A stretch of 64,000 nucleotides of DNA from NCBI GenBank assembly GCA_009729775.1, contig GCA_009729775.1_4081.1; one strand, given 5' to 3'. Shown here piece by piece: positions 6,443 to 61,696 of the stretch (its first letter is position 1; every line of letters starts with the position of its first letter). Position numbers and translations under genes: made by a program. Source of the DNA: Escherichia coli. GTDB taxonomy: Bacteria > Pseudomonadota > Gammaproteobacteria > Enterobacterales > Enterobacteriaceae. The notes below the pieces were generated by a model, which saw nothing but the letters and a program-made list of their open reading frames with translations, was not told the DNA's origin and ran no database searches.

Positions 6443-7234
6443 TTAAATTTCAAATACAAATTTAGGATTGTAATCAAAATTCTCACAAGCTCCACTGTAT
6501 GATTCATAGCCTCGTGGATTACAAATGATACGTGTCTTACCAATGTGGTAGTCAAAGCTACTATGAACATGACCATGAATCCAAACATCAGCACCCAAAT
6601 CTTCAATGTACTGATCCATATCGGAACAGTAACAACCATTCAGTGAATCATTTTTATATTTTGGTGAAACACTTTGATAACTTGGTGCGTGATGGGTAAC
6701 CACGATGACCTTGAAATCATTATCATGCATAAAGCGAACTGTGTCAATAGAATTTTTGATAAATTGTTTATCTTTGTGATGCATAAACTCAGTATCATCT
6801 GGTGTCAGTTTCTTACGCCAAGGCTCTGATGTTGTTCCATGACGGATATGTTTGTAATCGTTCATCTTCAGACGAGCATCAAACTTCGTTAAAGAATTAC
6901 CTTTATCGAAGTCTGTCCACAGAGTACTACCAACAAGCAGTACTCCATCCAGCCATACAAATTTGTTTTGCAAAAAGATGAAATTTGGAATCTCATCTTG
7001 CATATCAGACAGTACTTTATGCGTTTTGTGGATATTGGAACCATAGTATTCGTGATTACCGGGAACCAGTACTACATTCTTAAACTGCTTACATAGTGAT
7101 TCGATGCCAGTACGGTAACGACTGCGTTTAACTTCATCGAAGTCCCCAGCAATAATCAGTACTACATCACTGTAATCACCGCTATGGAGGTAATCAGTTC
7201 CACCGTGTACGTCAGATGTTACAACAAATTTCAT
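6443..7234 (-). CDS. calcineurin-like metallophosphoesterase
   Basis: MKFVVTSDVHGG..GDFDE..GNHEY..HGHVH motifs; start trimmed to MKFVV. Confidence 0.75.
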   Translation of the reverse strand: MKFVVTSDVHGGTDYLHSGDYSDVVLIIAGDFDEVKRSRYRTGIESLCKQFKNVVLVPGNHEYYGSNIHKTHKVLSDMQDEIPNFIFLQNKFVWLDGVLLVGSTLWTDFDKGNSLTKFDARLKMNDYKHIRHGTTSEPWRKKLTPDDTEFMHHKDKQFIKNSIDTVRFMHDNDFKVIVVTHHAPSYQSVSPKYKNDSLNGCYCSDMDQYIEDLGADVWIHGHVHSSFDYHIGKTRIICNPRGYESYSGACENFDYNPKFVFEI

Positions 7235-7253
7235 AATTACCCCCAATAAATGG

Positions 7254-8672
7254 TTAACCTAATGCGTCAATAATACTGTTTGAGAATACTTCAACTGCAC
7301 TCTCACGAATTTCTAAGATACGAGTATAATCATCACAAGTGTTTTTGTCAAATCTAAATTCAATAAACACTGGTAAGAACAGTGATGGCTCACCAGTACG
7401 CTTGTCGAATACAATGTCATTACACTCAACTGTAACCACTTTACCAATAAGTTCTTGCATTCTTTCCCAAATGGTTTTAAATGTCCATTCAGCATCTTTC
7501 TCTTTGATACCAGTACCCACATTAACTTTCAATGAACCACAAGCACTTTCCAGTTGTAAAGAACCTAGGCTTCCTTTACGTTTACCTTCACCTTCATTGA
7601 AACCAACAATACGTAAGTCCAGTTGCATTTTCAATTTCATTTTCAACTGCTTCGGAGAAGTGTGAGATTTCCAGATGCCATCTTCACATTTCAGTACTGA
7701 ACCCTCTTCACCTTCGTTCATTAGTTCACTATTGTACTCAAATGCTTCTTTGATGTTTAGAACTTTACGGAATCCAACCATACGAACAAAATCACTATTG
7801 AGTTCGTTAATTGCATCTACTAAGATCTCGCGACGTTCTTTACGTTTTACATCCCATACGCCTTCACAAAATGCATCATATGGAACAACATCCCATAGAA
7901 CGAATACAGTACGCATTGCTTCATTCTGACTGATGCTATCTTTTCCAGCTTTCTGAATTATACCGTTGCCAGTAGTGCGTGGGAGAATTGTTTCCCCATC
8001 ATTGTCCAGTACTACACCTTCACCCATAAAGACTACACCACTACTAAAACGTTCATCTTTACTTTGGATGATGTGAGCAAGACCTGCCATCTCACCATCT
8101 CGACAACCCAGGAAGTCGTATAGTTTACCATTACGGGATGTAGAAGTTAATGAACCATTAATGACAACGTGGTTCAAGTACTGACCATCCATTTTCACTT
8201 CTGATATAGCATAACCATAATCTTTGAAGTTAATGTTCTTTGCAGTCTTTTTGTCAATCAAAGAACAACGCATATATGGTTCGTCTTTGATGAATCCTTT
8301 ACCAAACACATCATTGCAGTTTTTCTCCTGAATACCACAATCAAGGTTCTTCGTGAGCATTTTACGAAGAACTTCCTGGTCATCTTCTGATACAGAACCC
8401 AGTACTGAAGCAATGAAATCACGCCCAGCATTTCCTGTCACGCCACGCTTGTAAATGCATTCTAGCTTATCAATTGCTTCATCTAACGTCATATGTTGAT
8501 ATACGTCATCAGCGTCAGGGAGCTTCTTATAGCCACTTACGATAGAAGGGTCTAGAGTATATTTCAGTACTTTTTGTAAAGTTACATTATCTTTATTTTG
8601 TTCAAGAATAGCTTTTTTGCCTAGTGTACTGCTAGTATTTTTAATGCTTTCAAGAATTGCTAAAATGCTCAT
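7254..8672 (-). CDS. ATP-dependent DNA ligase (T4 gp30-like)
   Basis: 472 aa; N-terminus GKKAILEQNKDN resembles T4 ligase; adenylation motif SEVKMDGQ (KxDG); length and layout match T4 DNA ligase. Confidence 0.85.
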   Translation of the reverse strand: MSILAILESIKNTSSTLGKKAILEQNKDNVTLQKVLKYTLDPSIVSGYKKLPDADDVYQHMTLDEAIDKLECIYKRGVTGNAGRDFIASVLGSVSEDDQEVLRKMLTKNLDCGIQEKNCNDVFGKGFIKDEPYMRCSLIDKKTAKNINFKDYGYAISEVKMDGQYLNHVVINGSLTSTSRNGKLYDFLGCRDGEMAGLAHIIQSKDERFSSGVVFMGEGVVLDNDGETILPRTTGNGIIQKAGKDSISQNEAMRTVFVLWDVVPYDAFCEGVWDVKRKERREILVDAINELNSDFVRMVGFRKVLNIKEAFEYNSELMNEGEEGSVLKCEDGIWKSHTSPKQLKMKLKMQLDLRIVGFNEGEGKRKGSLGSLQLESACGSLKVNVGTGIKEKDAEWTFKTIWERMQELIGKVVTVECNDIVFDKRTGEPSLFLPVFIEFRFDKNTCDDYTRILEIRESAVEVFSNSIIDALG

Positions 8673-25971: not shown

Positions 25972-26592
25972 TTAGAGACAGTTGTGTACTATCTTATCAA
26001 AAGTACTACTGTCAATGTTATATTCATATAAAAATTTAAAATGTGAACCGTAACGCATCATCAGATTAAACTCTTCTTCAGTATTGAACTTGTAATCATG
26101 AATAGTCTCAGGGGTACATTTTAAACCCAAGAACTCTATAATTTCAGATGTTACATCATATCCTGAATTGAAGTATTTAACCCAAACACATTTTCCTTGT
26201 GGGTTGTATTTTCTATATTCTCCTTCTAGTTCTCCTTTAATAATATGAGCCTTAACACTTATTGAATTATTACTATATCTTTCTTCAAAATAATTACCAT
26301 ACTGGGCTTTTGATATTGTTGGTTTTTGAGTAGGAAGTAATTTAACTGAAGTCACTTCAATTCCATTTTGTAATTCCTTTATATAAGAAATGCATCCTTT
26401 TTCTTTAATAACCACATATCCAGTAAAGATATCTTCGTCTTGTGATTGATTAATGCAATCATCAAAATTCAAAGTTTTATAAGTAACAGTTTTTTCTTTT
26501 CTAATAAATGCCATCATTATTCCTATGGAAACATCAATGAATATACGTGACGTTGATTGCATCAACATCAGTAGAATTATCATGCTACGCAT
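25972..26592 (-). CDS. hypothetical protein
   Basis: 206 aa; hydrophobic N-terminus. Confidence 0.5.
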   Translation of the reverse strand: MRSMIILLMLMQSTSRIFIDVSIGIMMAFIRKEKTVTYKTLNFDDCINQSQDEDIFTGYVVIKEKGCISYIKELQNGIEVTSVKLLPTQKPTISKAQYGNYFEERYSNNSISVKAHIIKGELEGEYRKYNPQGKCVWVKYFNSGYDVTSEIIEFLGLKCTPETIHDYKFNTEEEFNLMMRYGSHFKFLYEYNIDSSTFDKIVHNCL

Positions 26593-27130
26593 GTCTAATT
26601 CTACAAGTACTATTTTCTTTTAATTAATATTGACGGGGTTTGCTTGAGCATATTTCATCCCCCCGCAGGGGAAAGAACAAAAAAATTTGACGCTGGTGGC
26701 CTTCACATAGTTCATATCACGAATTCTCTTACGAGACGAAAGCGGGTTGCTCTGTTTCTCTCTATCGCGGTTCTTGTAGCAACGGTCGTCGGTCTTAAAC
26801 ATCCCGACACATAATACAAATACCATATGACCAGTACTTGTATTTGATTTCACAAAATTTGGACGCAACTATATTGTATAATTCCGACCGCATATTTCTT
26901 ATGAAATCTCCCTTAGATAATTGGTAAGGTGCGATCCTTATATGTCTATCGAGGAACTCTCTTTATCCTATTGGAGTTCTTTATACAGCCGCATTGCCGT
27001 GAGTGGTTCAAACTATGCCATCATCTAACGGGTTTCATCTGCTGTTCGTACTGAAAGGACTACTCATCTACCCTCTACATTTTCGAGTGGATTAGGCTTT
27101 TAATCATTTCCTTATGGGAACCTTTCAGGA
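26593..27130. other. GC-rich non-coding island (candidate structured RNA or degenerate acquired element)
   Basis: About 540 bp with no credible ORF, visibly higher GC than flanks; contains CCCCCCGCAGGGG, GTTGCT...AGCAAC inverted repeats; terminator immediately upstream on minus strand. Confidence 0.3.
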
Positions 27131-27166
27131 TTAAAAAAGGTGACTAACATATTATGTTGTCACCTT
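27131..27166 (-). terminator. rho-independent terminator
   Basis: AAGGTGAC-loop-GTCACCTT followed on minus strand by TTTTTT. Confidence 0.7.
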
Positions 27167-27194
27167 ATATTATATCATTAACTTATCATTTGTC

Positions 27195-28049
27195 TCAGTT
27201 ATATTCGGTTTTTTCTGTGAAATTTGTTAGTATATCAACACTAAAACTTCGAATAACCTCAATCTTGCTTGGCATGAAACGGTGTTTATTTTTAATATAC
27301 AACTCATCATCTTCAATAAAAGATGTAAAAATGAATGCCATATCTTCACGTGGAATTTGTAAAATATCACACATTTCATTTGCCGATGCTACTGGTGAAT
27401 CATTATAGTACTGAGAGTATGCACTAGATTGGCGACCGATTATAATAGAATTTCTGATTAGAAAATTACTACAGTACTGAAAATCTTTGTAGTACTTTTC
27501 AATAATGTACGGCATAAGTGCTTCTTTCACGTCTTCATAACCATTAGTACTATCAATTGCTATACAGTAATCTTCACGTTCTTTTTTCTCATGATGGTAA
27601 TCATAAACATACTCAAAGAATGAATTTTTATTTAATGAATCATTTAAACCAACTGACCCACTATAGTATGATTTTCTATCATTCATTCGATCATCTGGGC
27701 ATGATGCATACATAGAAGTGTCATGTGATGATGTACCAATATAAATTTTCTTAGTAATATGATTATACGCTATGTAATCATAATCTTGAACTCCAGTCAG
27801 CATTAACTGGAACATTAAATCATCAGGAACATCAATTAACGGGTACTCAAACTTCGAATATCTACTGCGGCAGAAGTTCTTTTCAAATGCTCGGTATGCG
27901 ATAAAATCTTTTAGATTTTTACAAGATTCATGTTCATGAGCACTACTGCTACGTACATTGACATTAGTCGATGTGCAATATCCATCCGAATCTTCGGTGA
28001 AGTTACCAGCATAATCCTTATTGTAGTCAACGATTAGATAAAGTTTCAT
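27195..28049 (-). CDS. hypothetical protein (possible family A relative)
   Basis: Start trimmed to MKLYLIV (GGAG RBS; longer form would run through terminator hairpin); contains DDLMFQLMLTG. Confidence 0.5.
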   Translation of the reverse strand: MKLYLIVDYNKDYAGNFTEDSDGYCTSTNVNVRSSSAHEHESCKNLKDFIAYRAFEKNFCRSRYSKFEYPLIDVPDDLMFQLMLTGVQDYDYIAYNHITKKIYIGTSSHDTSMYASCPDDRMNDRKSYYSGSVGLNDSLNKNSFFEYVYDYHHEKKEREDYCIAIDSTNGYEDVKEALMPYIIEKYYKDFQYCSNFLIRNSIIIGRQSSAYSQYYNDSPVASANEMCDILQIPREDMAFIFTSFIEDDELYIKNKHRFMPSKIEVIRSFSVDILTNFTEKTEYN

Positions 28050-28068
28050 ACATCTCCAGACAAAAAAA

Positions 28069-28091
28069 GGACGAGATAACAAATCCCGTCC
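28069..28091 (-). terminator. rho-independent terminator
   Basis: Minus strand GGACG-ggatttgttatct-CGTCC followed by TTTTTTT. Confidence 0.55.
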
Positions 28092-34812: not shown

Positions 34813-35394
34813 TTAATCCATCATAAGTGGGATAATTGCCCATATCTTTTTCATAATCATATCTTCAGTAAAAACAAATGTTTTAGGAGCAGTATATGAT
34901 ATTGACACACCAAATGGAAGTTTGATTGCATCATCAATTATATTATGAATATCAAACCATGTTTTAACATAATCATACGGTGGAAGTTCATGAATTGTAC
35001 TTAACTGAAAGTAATTCTCTTCACCAAAATCACTATATTCAATTTCACAAATTTTAGTGAATTGATGATTCCATTTAGATATAATACTATTTTTATTATT
35101 GTACATAGTAGTTCTATGCATAAAACCATTTTTGCTAGTATGATTTGATATTACGTTTTCTTCAATGTCAGTATCTATTTTAAAATTCATATCAAAGTTG
35201 TAGTACGGACTTGACGATTCTTTGAATTTTAAATGTAAATTGCGATTGTTATTAATTTCAATTTCAATACAAAACACATCTGAATCAAAACGATTAAACT
35301 TGTAATCGTTATCTTCCGGTAGATTCTGTATTTTTTTCATAATACTAAGCATAGGGTGTACTACACTTTTAATAAAATCATTTGTTATTTTCAT
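34813..35394 (-). CDS. family A paralog
   Basis: motif EENYFQLSTIHE. Confidence 0.6.
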   Translation of the reverse strand: MKITNDFIKSVVHPMLSIMKKIQNLPEDNDYKFNRFDSDVFCIEIEINNNRNLHLKFKESSSPYYNFDMNFKIDTDIEENVISNHTSKNGFMHRTTMYNNKNSIISKWNHQFTKICEIEYSDFGEENYFQLSTIHELPPYDYVKTWFDIHNIIDDAIKLPFGVSISYTAPKTFVFTEDMIMKKIWAIIPLMMD

Positions 35395-35887
35395 AGTATT
35401 CCTTTAGAACTTTATATGATTCAACAATACTATCTTGTGTATAATTTGAACTATATACAACAGCACTTGTTTTAGTTGACCATAGATATGACATAAAGGT
35501 TATAACACTACTACATGGACTTAATGTATTGTTTTGAAATTCAATTTCTTCAATGTTATCAGTACTGGTATAGATGAATTGGAAAGTATCCATTGATTTA
35601 TTGGACAGCGATACTATAGTAGAATCCGTACCAGGACTATACATGAATGTCTCATTGCTAATAGTACTATCATTAGTATATGATGGTTTAGGAATATAAA
35701 TCAAACGCATGATATCACGCTCCAGACCTGACTTATTACTTTCCACCAAAGAAATCATATCTATATTTGTTATATGTTCAACACTGACATGGAACTTTTT
35801 GTTTAGAATTACATCTTTTGGTGAATTTTTATATGAAGACAAAATCTCATACAGCTCAACCAATTCTCGTGCATTTAATAAACTCAT
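35378..35887 (-). CDS. family A paralog
   Basis: motif EEIEFQNNTLS. Confidence 0.5.
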   Translation of the reverse strand: MSLLNARELVELYEILSSYKNSPKDVILNKKFHVSVEHITNIDMISLVESNKSGLERDIMRLIYIPKPSYTNDSTISNETFMYSPGTDSTIVSLSNKSMDTFQFIYTSTDNIEEIEFQNNTLSPCSSVITFMSYLWSTKTSAVVYSSNYTQDSIVESYKVLKEYYENNK

Positions 35888-36312
35888 GTTTTGTCTCTTA
35901 ATGAAAGAATATCCTTAGTATAAACTGAAACAGAAATATGATTATATTTCATCATTAATTTATACACATAAGAAGCTAGTACTAAATCGTAAATTAATTT
36001 AGTATTATACAGTACTTGGTATTGTAACGCAAGTGAATCAATATCATCTTTACTTTCAATATCCAGAAATGTACCAAAAATTGTAGTACCGTGTAGATGA
36101 AAAGTGGAATTAATGCAATCAATGCATTCATTGTCCAATAGAGTAGATGATGATGCCCTCGGTGAATCCCAAATAGTCACTGCGTGTATGCCCTCAACGA
36201 ACAAATCTATCCATATTTTGTGTCGTTGTCTTTTTTTTGTTTTATAATTTTCTGGATTTGAAAGTGTAGTTTCAATTATATCCCATATGTACAAACAATC
36301 ATCTCTTGTCAT
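35884..36312 (-). CDS. family A-like paralog (divergent)
   Basis: weak motif DSLALQYQVLYN. Confidence 0.4.
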   Translation of the reverse strand: MTRDDCLYIWDIIETTLSNPENYKTKKRQRHKIWIDLFVEGIHAVTIWDSPRASSSTLLDNECIDCINSTFHLHGTTIFGTFLDIESKDDIDSLALQYQVLYNTKLIYDLVLASYVYKLMMKYNHISVSVYTKDILSLRDKT

Positions 36313-36890
36313 TATAGAACCTTATCCATTGCTGCATTTAATGCTTTTAAACGATCTACATTCAAATTATTGAAGATGTATGTTCCTAACATGTGGAAAT
36401 CGAACTGGTACTTTTTGTATTCATGATAAATTAAACTACAAAAAATAACAGTACTAAGAACCTCTTCAGGTATAACAGTGCTCATCTGGAACAGGTCTTC
36501 TTCAACTGTACTTGATTCTGGATCGATAGCTTTTAACTCATACTCTTCATCACCGAATAGTACTTTAATATTATATAAAACACCAACAGTACTAATATGG
36601 AATGGGTGGTGTGAAAAACTTCCATCATCCTTAATTTGTATATCGGTTCTAATCTCACACTCTTGATTACTTTTATTTTTATTTTTTACAATACAAATAT
36701 TTCTAGCCCCAGAAATAGTAAGAATGCCGTGATCGTAATATTCATTGGACCAACATTTAGATGAAATTGCTACATCACGGATGAGGTATTGTTTTTCAAT
36801 TTCTTTTGAACTACTAACAATTGATAACATTTTTGTACTGATATCATATAATAACTGATGGCGTTCTGTCATATAACTATAAGCGTTCAT
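36312..36890 (-). CDS. family A paralog
   Basis: motif VEEDLFQMSTVI. Confidence 0.6.
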   Translation of the reverse strand: MNAYSYMTERHQLLYDISTKMLSIVSSSKEIEKQYLIRDVAISSKCWSNEYYDHGILTISGARNICIVKNKNKSNQECEIRTDIQIKDDGSFSHHPFHISTVGVLYNIKVLFGDEEYELKAIDPESSTVEEDLFQMSTVIPEEVLSTVIFCSLIYHEYKKYQFDFHMLGTYIFNNLNVDRLKALNAAMDKVL

Positions 36891-37461
36891 ATTTTTCCTT
36901 AACCAATTCTATATTTTGAAGTAGTGTATTCAGAACATCAGTCTTGTAATTGATAAAATCATTGTACATAACTAGTTCACCACAATCAAGAACTTTTGCA
37001 GTATCGTAACAAAGCATTAAGTACTCGAATTCTTTGTAATTGTCCAACAATGATTTCTGGAAAATGAATGCATCTCGAATATCTTCACTTTGGTCTAATT
37101 CTGGTGGAACATCCAACCCAATAAAACCATCATCTTCACTGAAATCAGATTCTACAATTTTATTAATTTTTTCATGTAATGCATTCGCAAATACCATATT
37201 AGAAGAAATAGAACCAATACGTTCACGATTTCTGGATGTGCGAATGTACATAGTAATCGTATCCCATGAACTTTTAATTTTTTTAGAAAATTCATAAGTT
37301 TTATATACATCCAACTGAACTGATCCAAAACGATGTTTGGATTTGTTTTCAATTTTCAATCGATAATCATCAAATTCAACAATTTCTGTAATGTCATGAA
37401 TCTCTGAAAGTTCTGCAATGTCATGCATGAGTCTCAAAATTTTAGTTCTGATATGGTTCAT
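36877..37461 (-). CDS. family A paralog
   Basis: motif RDAFIFQKSLLD. Confidence 0.5.
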   Translation of the reverse strand: MNHIRTKILRLMHDIAELSEIHDITEIVEFDDYRLKIENKSKHRFGSVQLDVYKTYEFSKKIKSSWDTITMYIRTSRNRERIGSISSNMVFANALHEKINKIVESDFSEDDGFIGLDVPPELDQSEDIRDAFIFQKSLLDNYKEFEYLMLCYDTAKVLDCGELVMYNDFINYKTDVLNTLLQNIELVKEKYERL

Positions 37462-46660: not shown

Positions 46661-47109
46661 TCTATACCTTCTGGATCTTTACGAAGTTCTTCGAAATCCA
46701 AATAAAATCGAGGACAGTTAACACTCTTTAAGTACCACATAATAACTAATGCTTCAAGTACTTCATCATCGTAAACAGTACTGTTTTGGAAGTAATACTC
46801 TTCACTATCCCACGGACCTTCCAGTACTTCATAATTCAAAATTAATGGTTTTTTGCGATTAATAAAACGAATGCTACCATTTTCAACATAACTAATAAAT
46901 TCTGCATCTCTATTGTATTCAGAAAACGATATAGGACTATTGGAATTCAACCCAAGAATAACCCTTACACCAACGGAGTTATTATACATTTCATCCTTGT
47001 AGTAGTTGCCGTTCTCGGCTTTGTACACTTCTTTGAACTTTCCTGCCTTTATATCGTCAAAGTATCCATGTAGTTCTTTTGCTTTTTCAAGAGCACTTTG
47101 TAATGACAT
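46657..47109 (-). CDS. family A paralog (subgroup MSLQSALEKAK)
   Basis: motif VLEGPWDSEEYYFQNSTVYDDEVL...WYLKS...FYLDFEE. Confidence 0.65.
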   Translation of the reverse strand: MSLQSALEKAKELHGYFDDIKAGKFKEVYKAENGNYYKDEMYNNSVGVRVILGLNSNSPISFSEYNRDAEFISYVENGSIRFINRKKPLILNYEVLEGPWDSEEYYFQNSTVYDDEVLEALVIMWYLKSVNCPRFYLDFEELRKDPEGIE

Positions 47110-47575
47110 TACCTTCTCCTACAGTATTCTCTACATATTCATAATCAAAATAGAAACTACTGGAGTCAATACTTTTGAAATACCACATAATTACAATAAC
47201 ATCTAATTCTTCTTCATTGTACAACGTACTATTCTGGAAGTAATATTCTTCACTATCCCACGGTCCTTCCAGTACTGAATAAGGAATGATAGTGTCATCA
47301 GCATCACTATCTGTGTTGTAGATGGTAATATCTTCATTACGACAATAACTAATGTACTGATTGTACATATGATATTCACAGTTATCACTGTCACCAGTAT
47401 CAGTGTGCAGTACTAATGTTTCTGCACATATCTCGGACTCGTCATAATCGTCACGGTCTTTTACAAAAAATTCAGTATCAGATGTTTTATATACACCTGG
47501 TACTGAACCTTCCTGTACCATAATCATGTACTCATGAATCTTCTTTGCTTCTTTCAATGCACTTTGTAATGACAT
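47087..47575 (-). CDS. family A paralog (subgroup MSLQSALKEAK)
   Basis: motif SEEYYFQNSTLYNEEEL...WYFKS. Confidence 0.65.
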   Translation of the reverse strand: MSLQSALKEAKKIHEYMIMVQEGSVPGVYKTSDTEFFVKDRDDYDESEICAETLVLHTDTGDSDNCEYHMYNQYISYCRNEDITIYNTDSDADDTIIPYSVLEGPWDSEEYYFQNSTLYNEEELDVIVIMWYFKSIDSSSFYFDYEYVENTVGEGNVITKCS

Positions 47576-48018
47576 TACAAATCCCCTGTACTTAAATATT
47601 CACATGCTCCCCAGTCAAGAAAGAATGGTTCAAAATTCAATTCCTTAAAGTACCACAACACAACCAAGGAATCAAGAATTTCTTGGTTAAAAATGAGACT
47701 CTGTTGGAAGTAATACTCTTCAGTACCCCACGGGCCATCAAGTACCCCGAAGTCAACAGGTGTATTTGTTGTGTCAAAAGTAATCTTAGTACCTGGAATA
47801 TATACAAAAAAATTAGTATATTGACTACATGAAGAGTACTGTATAGTATTGTCTTTATCCTGTCCCATAAGTAAAATATCATCAGAGTATGTCTTTATAC
47901 CTGATAGATAATACTCATCACCAAATGCACTTACTTTATCACCATAGAAACCACTTTTTATGTTATCGTGGAAGTGATGTATTCTGTGTGCTAGTTCAAG
48001 TGCACTTGCTAAACTCAT
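47575..48018 (-). CDS. family A paralog (subgroup MSLASALELAH)
   Basis: motif TEEYYFQQSLIFNQEIL...WYFKE. Confidence 0.65.
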   Translation of the reverse strand: MSLASALELAHRIHHFHDNIKSGFYGDKVSAFGDEYYLSGIKTYSDDILLMGQDKDNTIQYSSCSQYTNFFVYIPGTKITFDTTNTPVDFGVLDGPWGTEEYYFQQSLIFNQEILDSLVVLWYFKELNFEPFFLDWGACEYLSTGDL

Positions 48019-48485
48019 ATATCCTCTTTAATAACTCGTAGTAGATCCAAGTCCAAATAGAAGCTAGGACAATCTGTATTATTAAAGTACCACAGAATGA
48101 CAAGCTTGTCAAGTACATCTTCCTCGTAGATAGTATTCTGCTGGAAGTAGTACTCTTCACTTCCCCAGTCATTATCCAGTACTGAATACGGAAGATGTTT
48201 CTCTGCTGCACCAGATATAATGTCAGAATCTTGTATTAAAATATCAGCATCACGACAGAAGTACATGTAATTATCTTCCAAATTAACATCACACCCATTG
48301 AGTGTTGTTTCAGAAGAATCTAAGTTTTCTTCATACATGTGAATGTACTCACTACTGTCATCGTATCTCATTCGACAATATGATTTACCTTCCTTGAATA
48401 GATATCCATTAAGACAATTTGCTACAATTTCTTTGCTGCATAAATCAATTAACTTCGCAATCTCTAATGCTCTTTCTAAACTCAT
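48015..48485 (-). CDS. family A paralog (subgroup MSLERALEIAK)
   Basis: motif SEEYYFQQNTIYEEDVL...WYFNN. Confidence 0.65.
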   Translation of the reverse strand: MSLERALEIAKLIDLCSKEIVANCLNGYLFKEGKSYCRMRYDDSSEYIHMYEENLDSSETTLNGCDVNLEDNYMYFCRDADILIQDSDIISGAAEKHLPYSVLDNDWGSEEYYFQQNTIYEEDVLDKLVILWYFNNTDCPSFYLDLDLLRVIKEDI

Positions 48486-48486
48486 T

Positions 48487-48978
48487 TCAACCCCTGTTAA
48501 TACCGTTATCTACAGTTTTCTTTACGTATTTGTAATCGAAATAGAAGTTCCCAGAACCAATACTTTTAAAGTACCACATAATTATAATAACATCAAGTAC
48601 TTCATTATCATATACAGTACTTTGTTGGAAGTAATACTCTTCACTATCCCACGGACCTTCCAGTACTTCACTCGGAATTATAATGTCATTGGAATCGCTG
48701 TCAGTACTGTTGATGGTATCTGTATCATTAATATAGACCATGTACTCATTATGCATATTAATGAAGCATTCATAATCATTAGGGTCGGTATCTAGTATGC
48801 ACGTTTCTGTATCCAGTACGCACGTTTCTGTATCTGAGCAGTCATTATAAAGGAGGTTATCCGGTACATAATATTGAGTACTTGTGTCTTTGAAAACACC
48901 GTAAACTGAACCTTCTTTTGCCATATTCATGTACTCATGAATCTTCTTTGCTTTTTCCAATGAACTCTGTAATGTCAT
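48487..48978 (-). CDS. family A paralog (subgroup MTLQSSLEKAK)
   Basis: motif SEEYYFQQSTVYDNEVL...WYFKS. Confidence 0.65.
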   Translation of the reverse strand: MTLQSSLEKAKKIHEYMNMAKEGSVYGVFKDTSTQYYVPDNLLYNDCSDTETCVLDTETCILDTDPNDYECFINMHNEYMVYINDTDTINSTDSDSNDIIIPSEVLEGPWDSEEYYFQQSTVYDNEVLDVIIIMWYFKSIGSGNFYFDYKYVKKTVDNGINRG

Positions 48979-50606: not shown

Positions 50607-50801
50607 CTTAATCTCTACTATAATTAATAAGGTAAACTCCAATATAAGGAGAACGTTCGGCGGCGGGGTATTTTTTGTTTCAAGAAACATGAACTGTACT
50701 CTGAAAAACACAATATAAAACTTTATATTAAACATATACCTTAGCATGTTTTTCAGCGGAAATTTTTTTGACCCCCTGCGGCCTGTCAAAATGAAACGTC
50801 T

Positions 50802-61036: not shown

Positions 61037-61244
61037 AATCTCTTTTTGCTTTCCTCGCCAAAAGGTACATATACGATTCTTCGTATTGTGCTTGATAGTT
61101 TGTGTTTAAGAGTCGAAACAACTTCTGTTCTGCTAGAACGAGTTGCTTATCTTCATAACAACGATAGCGTATCAACTTTTTGTATTCGATGTTGATTACA
61201 TCCATTACTATAAGCCCATGTTCATCATCTGTCAAGTGTTTCAT
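61014..61244 (-). CDS. family B paralog
   Basis: motif FRLLNTNYQAQYEESYMYLL. Confidence 0.55.
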   Translation of the reverse strand: MKHLTDDEHGLIVMDVINIEYKKLIRYRCYEDKQLVLAEQKLFRLLNTNYQAQYEESYMYLLARKAKRDYENFKRR

Positions 61245-61470
61245 GTATCTTTTCCTTAATAGTGATTTTAAGAGATTTAATTATACGTTCAACGTGATAC
61301 TCCTGTCTATCAGTTCCAAGAAGGTATGGTAGTGCTTGGAATAGAGCTTCCGCATTCTTTTCCTCTGGGGTTTGGTTTGGATCATTAGGAAGTTGATTGG
61401 CATATCTCTTGGCACTAACTAATCTCTCGACGTATTCATTATATGTTAAGTATATCATTTCATTTTGCAT
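61225..61470 (-). CDS. family B paralog
   Basis: motif LPYLLGTDRQEYHVERIIKSL; close paralog of the next gene. Confidence 0.6.
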   Translation of the reverse strand: MQNEMIYLTYNEYVERLVSAKRYANQLPNDPNQTPEEKNAEALFQALPYLLGTDRQEYHVERIIKSLKITIKEKIHETLDR

Positions 61471-61696
61471 TTACTTTTTCCTTAATAGTAATTTTAAGAT
61501 ATTTAATTATACGTTCAATGTGATACTCTTGCCTATCAGTTCCAAGAAGGTATGGTAATCTTTGGAATAAAACTTCTGCACTCCTTTCTGCTGGGGTTTG
61601 GTTTGTGTTGTGAGGAAGTTTATTTGTAAGTCTTTTGGATTTATCTAGTCTTTCTGTTAACTCATCATGTGTTAAGTATATCATTTCCTTTTGCAT
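61460..61696 (-). CDS. family B paralog
   Basis: motif LPYLLGTDRQEYHIERIIKYL. Confidence 0.6.
   Translation of the reverse strand: MQKEMIYLTHDELTERLDKSKRLTNKLPHNTNQTPAERSAEVLFQRLPYLLGTDRQEYHIERIIKYLKITIKEKVNAK

Follow-up and report, generated by a model that had tools for sequence, protein, structure and literature searches.

The 64-kb window (the whole stretch of 64,000 nucleotides that was analysed), whose source is a 121Q-like (RaK2-like) jumbo coliphage, contains a non-coding gap at ~26515-27194 that is, in our opinion, probably the gene of a large folded non-coding RNA of an undescribed family, equipped with its own promoter and acting in trans through its fold. What alignment of the copies shows is a conserved, non-coding, multi-copy element whose evolution preserves a predicted set of ~20 helices, five of them pseudoknotted. 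The unit is read from the minus strand and comprises, in order, a phage-type promoter, an RNA of ~480 nt, a weak hairpin with a U-run, and a conserved downstream block. The generic criteria for a structured non-coding RNA gene (covarying structure, no coding potential and own transcription signals) are met, transcription itself being inferred. The features of the locus are as follows.

27169..27196, minus strand: promoter P1, with a -35-like GAGACA (27196-27191), a 16-nt spacer and an extended -10 box TGaTATAAT (27177-27169)
27133..27164, minus strand: hairpin GGUGAC/GUCACC (arms 27164-27159/27144-27139) followed by U6 (27138-27133), seen in the sequence
~26680..27162, minus strand: RNA gene, ~480 nt, its ends predicted from promoter and U-run and unmapped
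27048..27128, minus strand: 5' domain of the RNA, helices 1-4, mutual-information pairs 58/140 and 132/145
26915..27045, minus strand: central domain, helices 5-11
26847..26907, minus strand: variable or optional domain, alignment columns 324-395
26712..26842, minus strand: 3' domain, helices 13-19, with 91.8-100% of cells paired
26679..26703, minus strand: 3' hairpin AAGGC..GCGUC, then AAA and U7, seen in the sequence; the least certain part
26620..26678, minus strand: downstream block UUCUUU-CCCCUGCGGGGGG-AUGAAA...CAAACCCCGUCAAUA, which includes CCCCCCGCAGGGG
26515..26619, minus strand: leader of the downstream gene, with two local hairpins (GUAGAAUUA..UAAUUCUAC; GUUGAUGCAAUCAAC) and an AGGA Shine-Dalgarno before the likely start at 26514/26517
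26620..26868, minus strand: 82-aa Lys/Arg-rich open reading frame, not a gene; spans covarying RNA helices

A first-pass annotation of this DNA had described a GC-rich gap without a convincing open reading frame, and both properties are borne out: the frames are all short, that of 82 aa is not conserved, and the GC content of 26677-27130 is 0.403 against a window mean of 0.326 (sd 0.032), which places this segment in the top 0.9% of the 454-nt windows of the stretch. The gap, correctly taken as non-coding, is probably longer than the annotation had it, because the downstream gene most likely begins at the ATG at 26514/26517 behind the AGGA. The inverted repeat GTTGCT (26746-26751)/AGCAAC (26778-26783) pointed out at that stage is real and coincides with a pseudoknot helix supported by covariation. 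CCCCCCGCAGGGG is also present, one base away from where it had been placed (26659-26671 instead of 26660..26672). The terminator thought to bound the island does exist as a hairpin with a U-run, but it belongs to the minus strand and therefore marks not the end of the element but its 5' (upstream) side, immediately behind the -10 box. The motif at 50776-50785, which had been regarded as related, turns out to be unrelated: local blastn, a pattern search and the family profile provide no link, nor do they reveal a second copy inside the window, the gap at 50607-50801 included. All that this other gap has in common with the RNA element is a short GC-rich motif.

The single-sequence folding energy of the RNA is unremarkable (z = -1.05), so that the case rests on comparative evidence. 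The model derived from 40 distinct copies consists of 20 helices with 91 pairs, five of the helices being pseudoknotted. In these copies 94.8% of pair cells are paired, versus 35-39% with slid partners, and compensatory (double) changes are found in 67 of the 91 pairs. The covariation score is 0.51 versus 0.06-0.09, a value that none of 500 shuffles reached. RNAalifold places compensatory changes in 46 of 65 pairs, and a mutual-information ranking independently recovers the pseudoknot pairs. Folding combined with covariation analysis, which the first-pass annotation had recommended along with Infernal/Rfam and ARAGORN searches, thus uncovers extensive compensatory covariation across phage copies. 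It should be noted that the 40 aligned copies are related, and counts of compensatory cells therefore overstate the number of independent events. A few RNAalifold helices (459-461/471-473 and 283-285/592-594 among them) clash with pseudoknots and were replaced using covariation. G.U occurs 197 times across the alignment versus 31 times for A.C; together with the orientation of promoter and U-run, this identifies the minus strand as the RNA strand.

The 5' domain is formed by a long-range helix, CUGAAAGG/CCUUUCAG (27128-27121/27058-27051), which surrounds two hairpins, one of them bearing the conserved loop GAAAAYGUA, and which is knotted with a GUA/UAC helix (27063-27061/27050-27048). In the central domain, the helices ACAGC/GCUGU and CCGU..ACGG are accompanied by conserved internal loops, an AUG/CAU pseudoknot joins 26994-26992 to 26944-26942, and the loop of the hairpin GAACUC/GAGUUC pairs with UCU at 26917-26915; a hairpin UAAG/CUUA and the invariant strands CGAUAGACAUAU and CUAAGGGAG are also found here. 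Pair 222/285 changes from G-C to A-U in 11 of the 40 copies, while pair 248/314 is C-G in 23, A-U in 11, U-G in 3 and unpaired in 3. The variable domain, missing or shortened in some paralogues, holds a recurring hairpin module, the motif of which is inserted at a second site in other copies. In the 3' domain, the loop UCAUAU of the hairpin UACAAGUAC/GUAUUUGUA pairs with AUAUGA (26830-26825/26717-26712), a pairing that stacks on CGCGA/UCGUG, and an H-type pseudoknot is created where GUUGC/GCAAC (26783-26779/26750-26746) crosses GAGAG/CUUUC (26762-26758/26742-26738). Substitutions in this domain are exemplified by pair 463/494 (C-G in 22 copies, U-A in 16, A-U in 1, G-C in 1) and pair 482/505 (A-U in 22, G-C in 12, C-G in 5, U-G in 1). 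The helices gather many invariant unpaired stretches, namely GAAAAYGUA, CAGAUGAG, CAAUGCG, CGAUAGACAUAU, CUAAGGGAG, CGACCGUU, GAUAGAGAGAAAC and ACCCGC.

A blastn search with the non-coding stretch matched 71 RaK2-like phage records at 4-5 places per record, the hosts being Escherichia, Klebsiella, Salmonella, Erwinia, Yersinia, Serratia, Cronobacter, Pectobacterium and Xanthomonas. None of the phage records listed annotates an RNA feature over the match; the jumbo-phage records that were checked leave the RNA loci blank or put spurious small reading frames there. A profile search yielded 58 matches at first and 65 distinct full-length copies later, with identities as low as 55%, and the size of the RNA ranges across the family from ~430 to 520 nt. 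Compared with other genera, the window copy has 66-75% nucleotide identity in the RNA, whereas the flanking proteins are 26-39% identical. The four copies of 121Q, which have a single orientation, are 70-74% identical to one another and lie at 90.3, 193, 247.5 and 326.7 kb. Each paralogue is structurally intact and keeps its own gene neighbourhood across the genera sampled; the neighbour genes differ between paralogues, and no functional partner emerges from them. Among 185,579 GTDB species genomes no real copy was found, the one chance match being confined to the search pattern, and a search of plasmids found none.

A complete, structurally intact copy does occur in an integrase-bearing island in 2 of 5,426 E. 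coli genomes. Of the 91 pairs it retains 81, and it differs from the closest phage copy by 11 compensatory double changes. E. coli LR-29-1 (NZ_AP027515.1) is a carrier of this island. Promoter, RNA and downstream block travel together into this island, where the RNA sits among unrelated genes, which we take to be predicted conflict genes, and is followed by ~770 nt of non-coding DNA before the next gene. No jumbo-phage homologues of the island neighbours were found, and an Rfam search of the island copy returned no family match.

Promoter P1 agrees with the consensus at 10 of 12 positions and has the additional TG (consensus scan), and the layout G(G/A)(G/A)ACA...TGnTATAAT stands upstream of every paralogue and orthologue. 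This arrangement occurs 17 times in the 121Q genome, which indicates that it represents a general promoter class of the phage. In the absence of transcript data, the use of P1 for transcription is inferred, as are the ends of the RNA, its abundance and even its expression. The GGUGAC/GUCACC hairpin with its U6 is probably the terminator of the upstream gene (27195-28082). Its 5' arm contains the predicted P1 start (~27163-27161), and we infer that P1 transcripts, missing the full arm, escape the terminator. A hairpin and U-run right after the -10 box, with differing stem sequences, is kept in orthologues of the window paralogue from other genera (L092, L086, L070, L084, L075, L088, L073 and L091).

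At the other end, the 3' hairpin AAGGC..GCGUC with its U7 would probably serve as a weak intrinsic terminator of the window copy. It is the least certain part of the model, since helix 20 is poorly aligned in the 40-copy alignment and the hairpin was not scored by the terminator scan. Other paralogues carry GACGA/UCGUC or GAUGC/GCGUC at this position, and in many of them a canonical terminator hairpin and U-run is located just downstream. Because a strong terminator is absent from the window copy and from two paralogue types, the RNA may form the 5' portion of the downstream mRNA, in which case it could act in cis. In the window copy the downstream gene begins ~165 nt past the U-run; the leader segment of other paralogues contains conserved ACGAAGUG boxes and a TTGAC-hairpin-GGCAAAT motif instead of the hairpins seen here.

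The downstream block is found after every RNA copy, and in 121Q the sequences CAAAYCYCGTCA and GGGGGGA(A/T)G are confined to the four copies. In its small hairpin the G run is invariant, and changes in the opposite 5' arm are almost exclusively C to U. We infer that the block (the CCCC...GGGGGG hairpin and CAAAUCUCGUCAG) is part of the same functional unit as the RNA, its role being unknown, and that it is probably also read as RNA from the same strand. A general phage promoter was ruled out for the block, which in 121Q occurs solely at the RNA copies, and a conserved mini-ORF starting from GGGGGGAUG was dismissed by inspection, as its frame is not conserved.

The RNA cannot be assigned to a known family. 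Rfam 15 (4,227 covariance models) at gathering thresholds gave zero matches over the whole 64-kb window, and at E<=10 only sub-threshold chance matches within 26400-27400, with SpF39 on the terminator hairpin as the best of them (27 bits against a threshold of 60); no family emerged at permissive cut-offs (E<=10 or E<=5). ARAGORN reported zero tRNA or tmRNA genes in the window, in agreement with the earlier failure to see a tRNA cloverleaf. Literature searches on non-coding and structured RNAs of RaK2-like and other jumbo phages, and on GOLLD and ROOL, yielded no description of the RNA. GOLLD, ROOL and OLE are non-coding RNAs of the large 'ornate' kind, found in bacteria and phages; their functions are unknown or known only in part, and they form RNA-only homo-oligomers (PMC12286853). 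The present RNA resembles these three in being a large non-coding RNA gene product, by inference independently transcribed, with many helices and pseudoknots, optional peripheral inserts and no known function, and resembles GOLLD and ROOL in being carried by phages. It nevertheless matches the Rfam models of none of them in sequence or structure; those of GOLLD and ROOL (RF01998 and RF03087) are absent even among matches at E<=10. Unlike GOLLD and ROOL, which often neighbour tRNA genes in phage or prophage genomes, it does not lie beside such genes (the tRNAs of 121Q are at 72.6-78 kb, the nearest RNA copy at 90.3 kb). Other differences from all three are its carriers, which are jumbo phages of Gram-negative enterobacteria and of Xanthomonas, and its occurrence as 4-5 divergent paralogues per genome, always with the downstream block.

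A related jumbo phage offers a second comparison. PA5oct has four lncRNAs defined by RNA-seq, two of which are highly expressed throughout infection; neither a structure nor conservation beyond phage MIJ3 has been reported for them (PMC7318152). They share with the present RNA a non-coding nature, a length of a few hundred nucleotides and an occurrence as several per genome, PA5oct being a relative of 121Q and RaK2, and they show that jumbo phages of this kind do make abundant non-coding RNAs. The family profile, however, finds no similarity to ncRNA001-004: nhmmer at maximum sensitivity gave two chance-level matches in the ncRNA001/002 region (E 1.8 and 6.3, negative bit scores) and zero matches to ncRNA003/004. 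RNase P RNA, group I introns and tmRNA are similar to our RNA in size, in long-range pseudoknots and in an invariant unpaired core held by covarying helices, but none is matched in Rfam even at permissive thresholds, the bacterial, archaeal and nuclear RNase P models being absent among matches at E<=10. Group I and II introns differ further in that all copies here are intergenic, with intact and conserved neighbours. Resemblances noticed by eye (conserved regions of RNase P, group I R/S elements, the hammerhead CUGAUGA box) did not survive testing.

Could the RNA be a very large cis-acting leader, that is, a riboswitch, attenuator or processive-antitermination RNA that controls read-through from P1 into the downstream gene? 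We consider this unlikely. Most paralogue types, including that of the window copy, do present the order promoter, structured RNA, hairpin with U-run and co-oriented gene, and the two types without a strong terminator are likely to be co-transcribed with the gene that follows. A leader should, however, always stand upstream of a co-oriented regulated gene, and one paralogue type and the E. coli copy have none nearby: the type adjacent to endonuclease VII (L007, L017, L021, L014) is followed by a bidirectional terminator and a convergent gene but is conserved to the same extent, and the island copy is separated from the next gene by the ~770 nt mentioned above. Moreover, downstream genes are wholly different between paralogues and can vary among phages within one type; terminator hairpins, where present, vary in sequence from copy to copy and are set apart from the core by variable linkers; inspection by eye only showed no conserved alternative pairing of terminator with core; and a length of 430-520 nt with five pseudoknots far exceeds known leaders. 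It is also rather improbable that the loci are replication origins, at which a structured primer transcript from P1 hybridises at the downstream C-run/G-run block as in ColE1 RNA II or T4 oriF/oriG, or that the E. coli island carries its copy so that an infecting jumbo phage replicates the island. As in those systems, a promoter-driven RNA of ~0.5 kb lies just upstream of a short C/G-rich block, one that is conserved and found nowhere else in 121Q, and as in T4 several copies are dispersed over the genome (4-5 per ~350 kb; in 121Q at ~90, 193, 247 and 327 kb, in one orientation). The phages also carry T4-like replication genes, a UvsW-like helicase and RNase H, and promoter, RNA and block moved as one unit into the bacterial island. 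Yet a canonical intrinsic terminator separates RNA and block in most copies, no consistent covariation links the CCCC/CGUCAG block to the RNA core, and no obvious AT-rich unwinding element or iterons are seen beside the block. The RNA is, in addition, far more elaborately folded; the primer and R-loop RNAs of ColE1 and T4 are not known to need or to show a pseudoknotted core with invariant unpaired strands.

A feature acting as DNA, whether a degenerate intron, the remains of a mobile element, a regulatory region bound by proteins or a fragment gained by horizontal transfer, would be in keeping with the GC-richness relative to the genome, the repetition within the genome and the single copy in a bacterial mobile island, but is very improbable, as the G.U/A.C asymmetry and the long-range compensatory pairs are only sensible for one transcribed strand. 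In all genera sampled the copies keep their synteny and are intact, without decay; they are not accompanied by an interrupted gene or a homing endonuclease, and the Rfam intron models are unmatched. Two suggestions of the first-pass annotation have to be given up for such reasons: an intron or mobile-element remnant, in view of 4-5 syntenic, structurally intact copies that interrupt no gene, and a fragment of host origin, in view of its absence from the species genomes and plasmids searched and of an occurrence in E. coli limited to two genomes, both times in the mobile island. Its alternative suggestion, a structured non-coding RNA, gains support from conservation across genera, covariation including the five pseudoknots, the RNA's own promoter and the lack of a conserved reading frame; missing conservation or covariation was to have refuted it, and both are present across phage genera. 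The other outcome named as a refutation, a conserved gene in the 82-aa frame, did not materialise either. Conservation at the protein level, of this or another short reading frame, is hardly credible, even if the 82-aa frame lies on the gene-sense strand and several GenBank records place 'hypothetical proteins' here. In the 40 copies, on either strand, the longest stop-free stretches vary in length, position and frame, and the alignment has many indels that are not multiples of three. Substitutions occur as compensatory pairs within helices and do not follow third codon positions.

A trans-acting catalytic or scaffold RNA is, in our judgement, the most likely reading; we base it on anatomy (the size and pseudoknots, the unpaired cores that are invariant, the retention of paralogues, and autonomy), and the function is inferred. 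Transcription from the RNA's own phage-class promoter, ending at the hairpin and U-run, would produce a discrete stable RNA, although no transcript data are at hand. Such an RNA would act through its three-dimensional fold, either as a catalyst or by offering proteins a scaffold or decoy, and presumably neither works by antisense pairing nor encodes anything; its substrate, ligand or partner is unidentified. The paralogues, being ancient and individually retained, are presumably not redundant, and may differ in their partners or form a joint assembly.

RNAs that are large, rich in pseudoknots and built around invariant cores are rare, and historically they have proved to be ribozymes, RNP cores or RNA-only assemblies. 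The intricate fold, the 4-5 ancient copies and the lack of a match to any known RNA family make the present RNA a strong candidate for a new class of functional RNA. Much more tentatively, this class might be a ribozyme, or else an RNA machine that assembles itself from the 4-5 paralogues, possibly as a hetero-oligomer. It would be encoded by a portable ~650-bp cassette of promoter, RNA and block, one that RaK2-like jumbo phages cannot do without and that a bacterial island, possibly a defence island or a phage satellite, has acquired by capture or exchange; this remains a possibility that we ourselves would rather doubt than assert. If it is true, the island copy of the cassette might interfere with jumbo-phage infection or exploit it.

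These results correct the annotation of jumbo-phage records at the RNA loci. The RNA is restricted to well-defined, culturable phages (121Q, PBECO4, RaK2, GAP32 and CBB), and this restriction to coliphages and their relatives makes it, unlike many RNA classes known from metagenomes only, testable by E. coli genetics and biochemistry. Functional handles are provided by the 4-5 anciently diverged copies at fixed positions, by the companion DNA/RNA block, and by the intact copy in a bacterial island.

By megablast, the window belongs to the RaK2-like jumbo myoviruses (Asteriusvirus, ~350 kb) that comprise Escherichia phage 121Q and its relatives. Positions 26400-27400 are 99.9% identical to the reverse strand of KM507819.1 192539-193540, and the genes surrounding the RNA locus lie on the minus strand. 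The first-pass annotation described here a GC-rich gap without a credible ORF, and both points hold: an ORF check found none, and a GC content of 0.40 (window mean 0.326, sd 0.032) falls in the top 0.9% of 454-nt windows. Its GTTGCT/AGCAAC inverted repeat was located at 26746-26751 and 26778-26783; its C6-GCA-G4 motif is present too, one base away from the position first reported (actual 26659-26671). Across the whole window ARAGORN finds no tRNA, as had been supposed, and no tmRNA either. Rfam at gathering thresholds gave no match over the window, and a permissive scan of the gap gave chance matches only. The hairpin at 27139-27164, originally taken as the terminator bounding the gap, does carry a U-run, but its U-run is read from the minus strand. 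That places the hairpin on the 5' side of the gap element and makes it the probable terminator of the upstream gene (27195-28082). For the downstream gene, an AGGA ahead of 26514/26517 points to a probable start there, which brings the non-coding stretch nearer to 680 bp. The longest ORF, 25972-26592, and the annotation of 121Q gene 416 begin well upstream of this better start (AGGA, ATGATG 26517/26514); the extra N-terminal residues of gene 416 (MRSMIILLMLMQSTS...) are probably untranslated and overlap conserved non-coding sequence.

Several other features of the window deserve mention. The intergenic gap at 50607-50801 (~195 bp, minus strand) has a GC-rich stretch resembling a hairpin, GACAGGCCGCAGGGGGUC, as well as a CCCCGCCGCC run; it does not belong to the RNA family, and the motif at 50776-50785, once thought related to the gap element, is unrelated. 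Between 40000 and 64000 (e.g., at 46690-48673 and 61239-61690) there are tandem paralogous gene arrays with a period of ~450 nt and a 226-nt tandem duplication. Throughout the window, motifs with AGTACT / CAGTACTG are strikingly common, among both direct and inverted repeats.

By blastn, the non-coding stretch on its own has matches in 71 phage records, all RaK2-like and with hosts in nine genera. The match spans window ~26608-27140, nucleotide identity beyond Escherichia phages is 66-75%, and each record has 4-5 matching places; no RNA feature is annotated over the matches in the records listed. After motif scans of IMG/VR and metagenomes, a profile search yielded 58 and later 105 matches; 65 of them represent distinct full-length copies, with identity as low as 55%. 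A pattern of the invariant core only gave 50 IMG/VR matches, all on contigs with names or sizes pointing to this jumbo-phage group: these include complete genomes of 346-378 kb, RaK2, GAP32, CBB, BF and fHe-Yen9-04 among them, and the shorter contigs are probably fragments of such genomes. Small hypothetical ORFs, up to five or six, are annotated over the RNA loci in several other phage records. In 121Q, gene 516 (KM507819.1 247799-247954; 27899-28054 of sequence piece L005), a 51-aa "hypothetical protein" antisense inside another RNA copy, is probably a spurious annotation.

The 121Q genome, nearly complete in the copy search, has four copies with 70-74% mutual identity, at ~90.3, 193 (the window copy), 247.5 and 326.7 kb. 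All share one orientation, and one is antisense to its neighbouring genes. In other genera, orthologues of each copy keep its gene neighbourhood, as follows:

Window type: flanked by gp415 and gp416 homologues
Second type: divergent from endonuclease VII and convergent with gp595
Third type: after structural protein gp515
Fourth type: after the phage sigma factor; outside Escherichia phages, confirmed in RaK2 only

These shared neighbourhoods indicate that multiplication of the RNA predates the radiation of the group and that each copy has been kept. For the window type, flanking proteins are only 26-39% identical between genera, versus 66-75% nucleotide identity for the RNA. A further stretch of 121Q without an annotated gene (KM507819.1 135194-137161, ~2 kb; 35194-37161 of piece L004), preceded by ~17 tiny (~60-aa) tandem paralogous genes, is not a family member by blastn.

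In an alignment of 40 distinct copies (A1), RNAalifold gave 65 pairs, of which 46 show compensatory double changes, and a mutual-information scan added pairs crossing the nested structure. The final model has 91 pairs in 20 helices, 5 of which are pseudoknotted; the alignment of helix 20 (the 3' hairpin) is poor, which makes this helix provisional. Standard pairs occupy 94.8% of cells, compared with 35-39% when the 3' partners are slid by 1-3 columns, 67 of the 91 pairs change on both sides, and the covariation score is 0.51 against 0.06-0.09; none of 500 shuffles attained the observed values. The aligned sequences are phylogenetically related, so cell counts overstate independent events; the slid-partner control retains this relatedness and is the fairer comparison, and its outcome is decisive. 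The inverted repeat of the first-pass annotation proves to be a helix, GUUGC/GCAAC, in which one position is C-G in 22 copies, U-A in 16, A-U in 1 and G-C in 1. It crosses GAGAG/CUUUC, which turns into GGAAG/CUUCC or ACUGG/CCAGU. A three-pair tertiary helix AUG/CAU becomes AUA/UAU in 11 copies, two hairpin loops base-pair with distant single strands, and long invariant unpaired stretches lie between helices. The excess of G.U over A.C (197 versus 31 cells) identifies the folded strand as the minus strand of the window. The single-sequence thermodynamic z-score is unremarkable. A ~30-nt hairpin module (UUGGAC-AGUAAAGUUGC-GUCCAA and variants) is inserted at two positions that differ by paralogue (A1 columns 350-385 and 514-551, e.g., in the copies of L005 and L098) and has the look of a peripheral element that can be reused or of a hairpin that binds protein.

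Every copy opens with G(G/A)(G/A)ACA, 16 nt and TGnTATAAT. This arrangement belongs to a general promoter class (G(G/A)(G/A)ACA-N13-16-TGnTATAAT), with 17 sites in 121Q that are all gene-sense and lie ahead of genes for primase, an exonuclease, structural proteins and a sigma factor, among others. The elements of the window are:

27196 (GAGACA) to 27169 (end of TATAAT), minus strand: promoter P1
27169, 21085, 17199, 13315 and 11065, minus strand: sites of the promoter class; 12 more in the sequence pieces L002-L007
26703-26679, minus strand: predicted 3' end, a small hairpin and AAAU7 only
26678-26620: downstream block, UUCAUU-CCCCUGCGGGGGG-AUGAAA...CAAAUCUCGUCAG, immediately 3' of every copy

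The window-type paralogue and its orthologues in other genera have a hairpin and U-run directly after the -10 box, with differing stems. The predicted P1 start (~27162) falls within the 5' arm of this hairpin, which, we infer, stops transcripts of the upstream gene and not those initiated at P1. The conserved core that follows is ~430-520 nt long and can carry optional inserts at three sites; its last element is a small hairpin (GACGA/UCGUC or GAUGC/GCGUC), after which many copies have a canonical terminator. Both signature motifs of the downstream block are, in 121Q, exclusive to the four RNA copies, ruling the block out as a general promoter. Variation in the 5' arm of its hairpin is almost only C to U and the G run is invariant, a pattern that would fit an RNA hairpin on the strand of the large RNA; neither covariation between block and core nor a conserved reading frame in the block was found. 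Transcription might extend into the block by read-through of the terminator, or the block might act as DNA. Beyond the block, most copies, though not that of the window, have a further conserved ~130-nt segment (e.g., 6780-6900 of piece L026 and 730-860 of L008), consisting in order of GAAUUGAG, repeated ACGAAGUG boxes and UUGAC-[5-bp hairpin of variable sequence]-GGCAAAU, the last just ahead of the ribosome-binding site of the next gene. This segment could be a shared leader or promoter.

Outside phages, matches occur in 2 of 5,426 complete E. coli genomes:

NZ_AP027515.1 ~3478943-3479618 (6805-7480 of piece L157): unit on the E. coli LR-29-1 chromosome
NZ_CM130020.1 245242-245618: second match

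No copy was found on plasmids, and 185,579 species-representative genomes held no real copy (a single match arose by chance and was confined to the pattern). The LR-29-1 unit is complete, with promoter (TGGGAT...TGTGATATAAT), full RNA (profile E = 5e-109), terminator and block. Its ~10.5-kb island adjoins ffs and encodes a tyrosine integrase interrupted by IS3, a serine recombinase, a DuOB-DUF488-mSLOG/DUF4326 trio, a 303-aa protein with CxxCxGxG zinc-ribbon repeats, several unknowns and a 150-aa protein that we read, from a DGRHR motif, as putatively ParB-like. Phage homology is limited to the ~650-bp unit; no jumbo-phage homologues of the neighbouring proteins were found, and ~770 nt more of non-coding DNA separates the unit from the next gene. 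The copy is 84% identical to one from Serratia phage BF, with 11 compensatory double changes between the two, and retains 81 of the 91 pairs, half of the misses being alignment gaps. The retained pairs and compensatory changes mark it as a functional portable unit rather than debris.

The closest RNAs in working are the "ornate" large RNAs GOLLD, ROOL and OLE, two of which are phage-borne (PMC12286853). The jumbo-phage RNA differs from them in having no model match and no tRNA adjacency, and failed every membership test run; it likewise failed those run for RNase P RNA, tmRNA, introns and riboswitch leaders. Four abundant or detectable "lncRNAs" are made by PA5oct, a related jumbo phage (PMC7318152); they are not homologous but make expression of the present RNA plausible. 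We found no published description of it in full-text literature, a search that left most subscription-journal papers out of scope. With neither model match nor description, we rate it a new RNA class, subject to that limited coverage.

Comparative sequence evidence thus establishes a conserved, multi-copy non-coding element whose sequence changes leave an elaborate pseudoknotted fold of one strand intact, and a unit with promoter-like and terminator-like signals of its own, portable as a whole. Among the options originally listed, a structured non-coding RNA is borne out by compensatory pairing, conservation across phages and the lack of a conserved ORF, and we regard a structured RNA gene as very likely. 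A small protein can be practically dismissed: on either strand, stop-free stretches vary from copy to copy in frame, place and length (40 copies compared), and the 82-aa ORF, confined to the window copy, was ruled out as a protein gene. An element acting as DNA, or a remnant, is very hard to reconcile with a fold so maintained. The RNA might instead be a primer marking replication origins, in analogy to ColE1 RNA II or the R-loop origins of T4. The dispersal of the copies in one orientation, the uniqueness of the C/G block and the copy in bacteria would suit such a role, but terminators intervene, and we consider it quite unlikely.

Action in trans is, in our opinion, probable. A giant cis-acting leader is unlikely, since neither the bacterial copy nor one of the paralogue types has a gene that it could control in cis, and the paralogues precede unrelated genes. 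Trans action is further inferred because a three-dimensional core is conserved, not long complementarity to a target, and because the known RNAs that are this large and complex are ribozymes, RNP cores or self-assembling RNAs. The RNA would accordingly be discrete and likely abundant, with expression and activity both inferred, and its fold would do the work in trans, either by catalysing a reaction or by serving as a protein scaffold or decoy.
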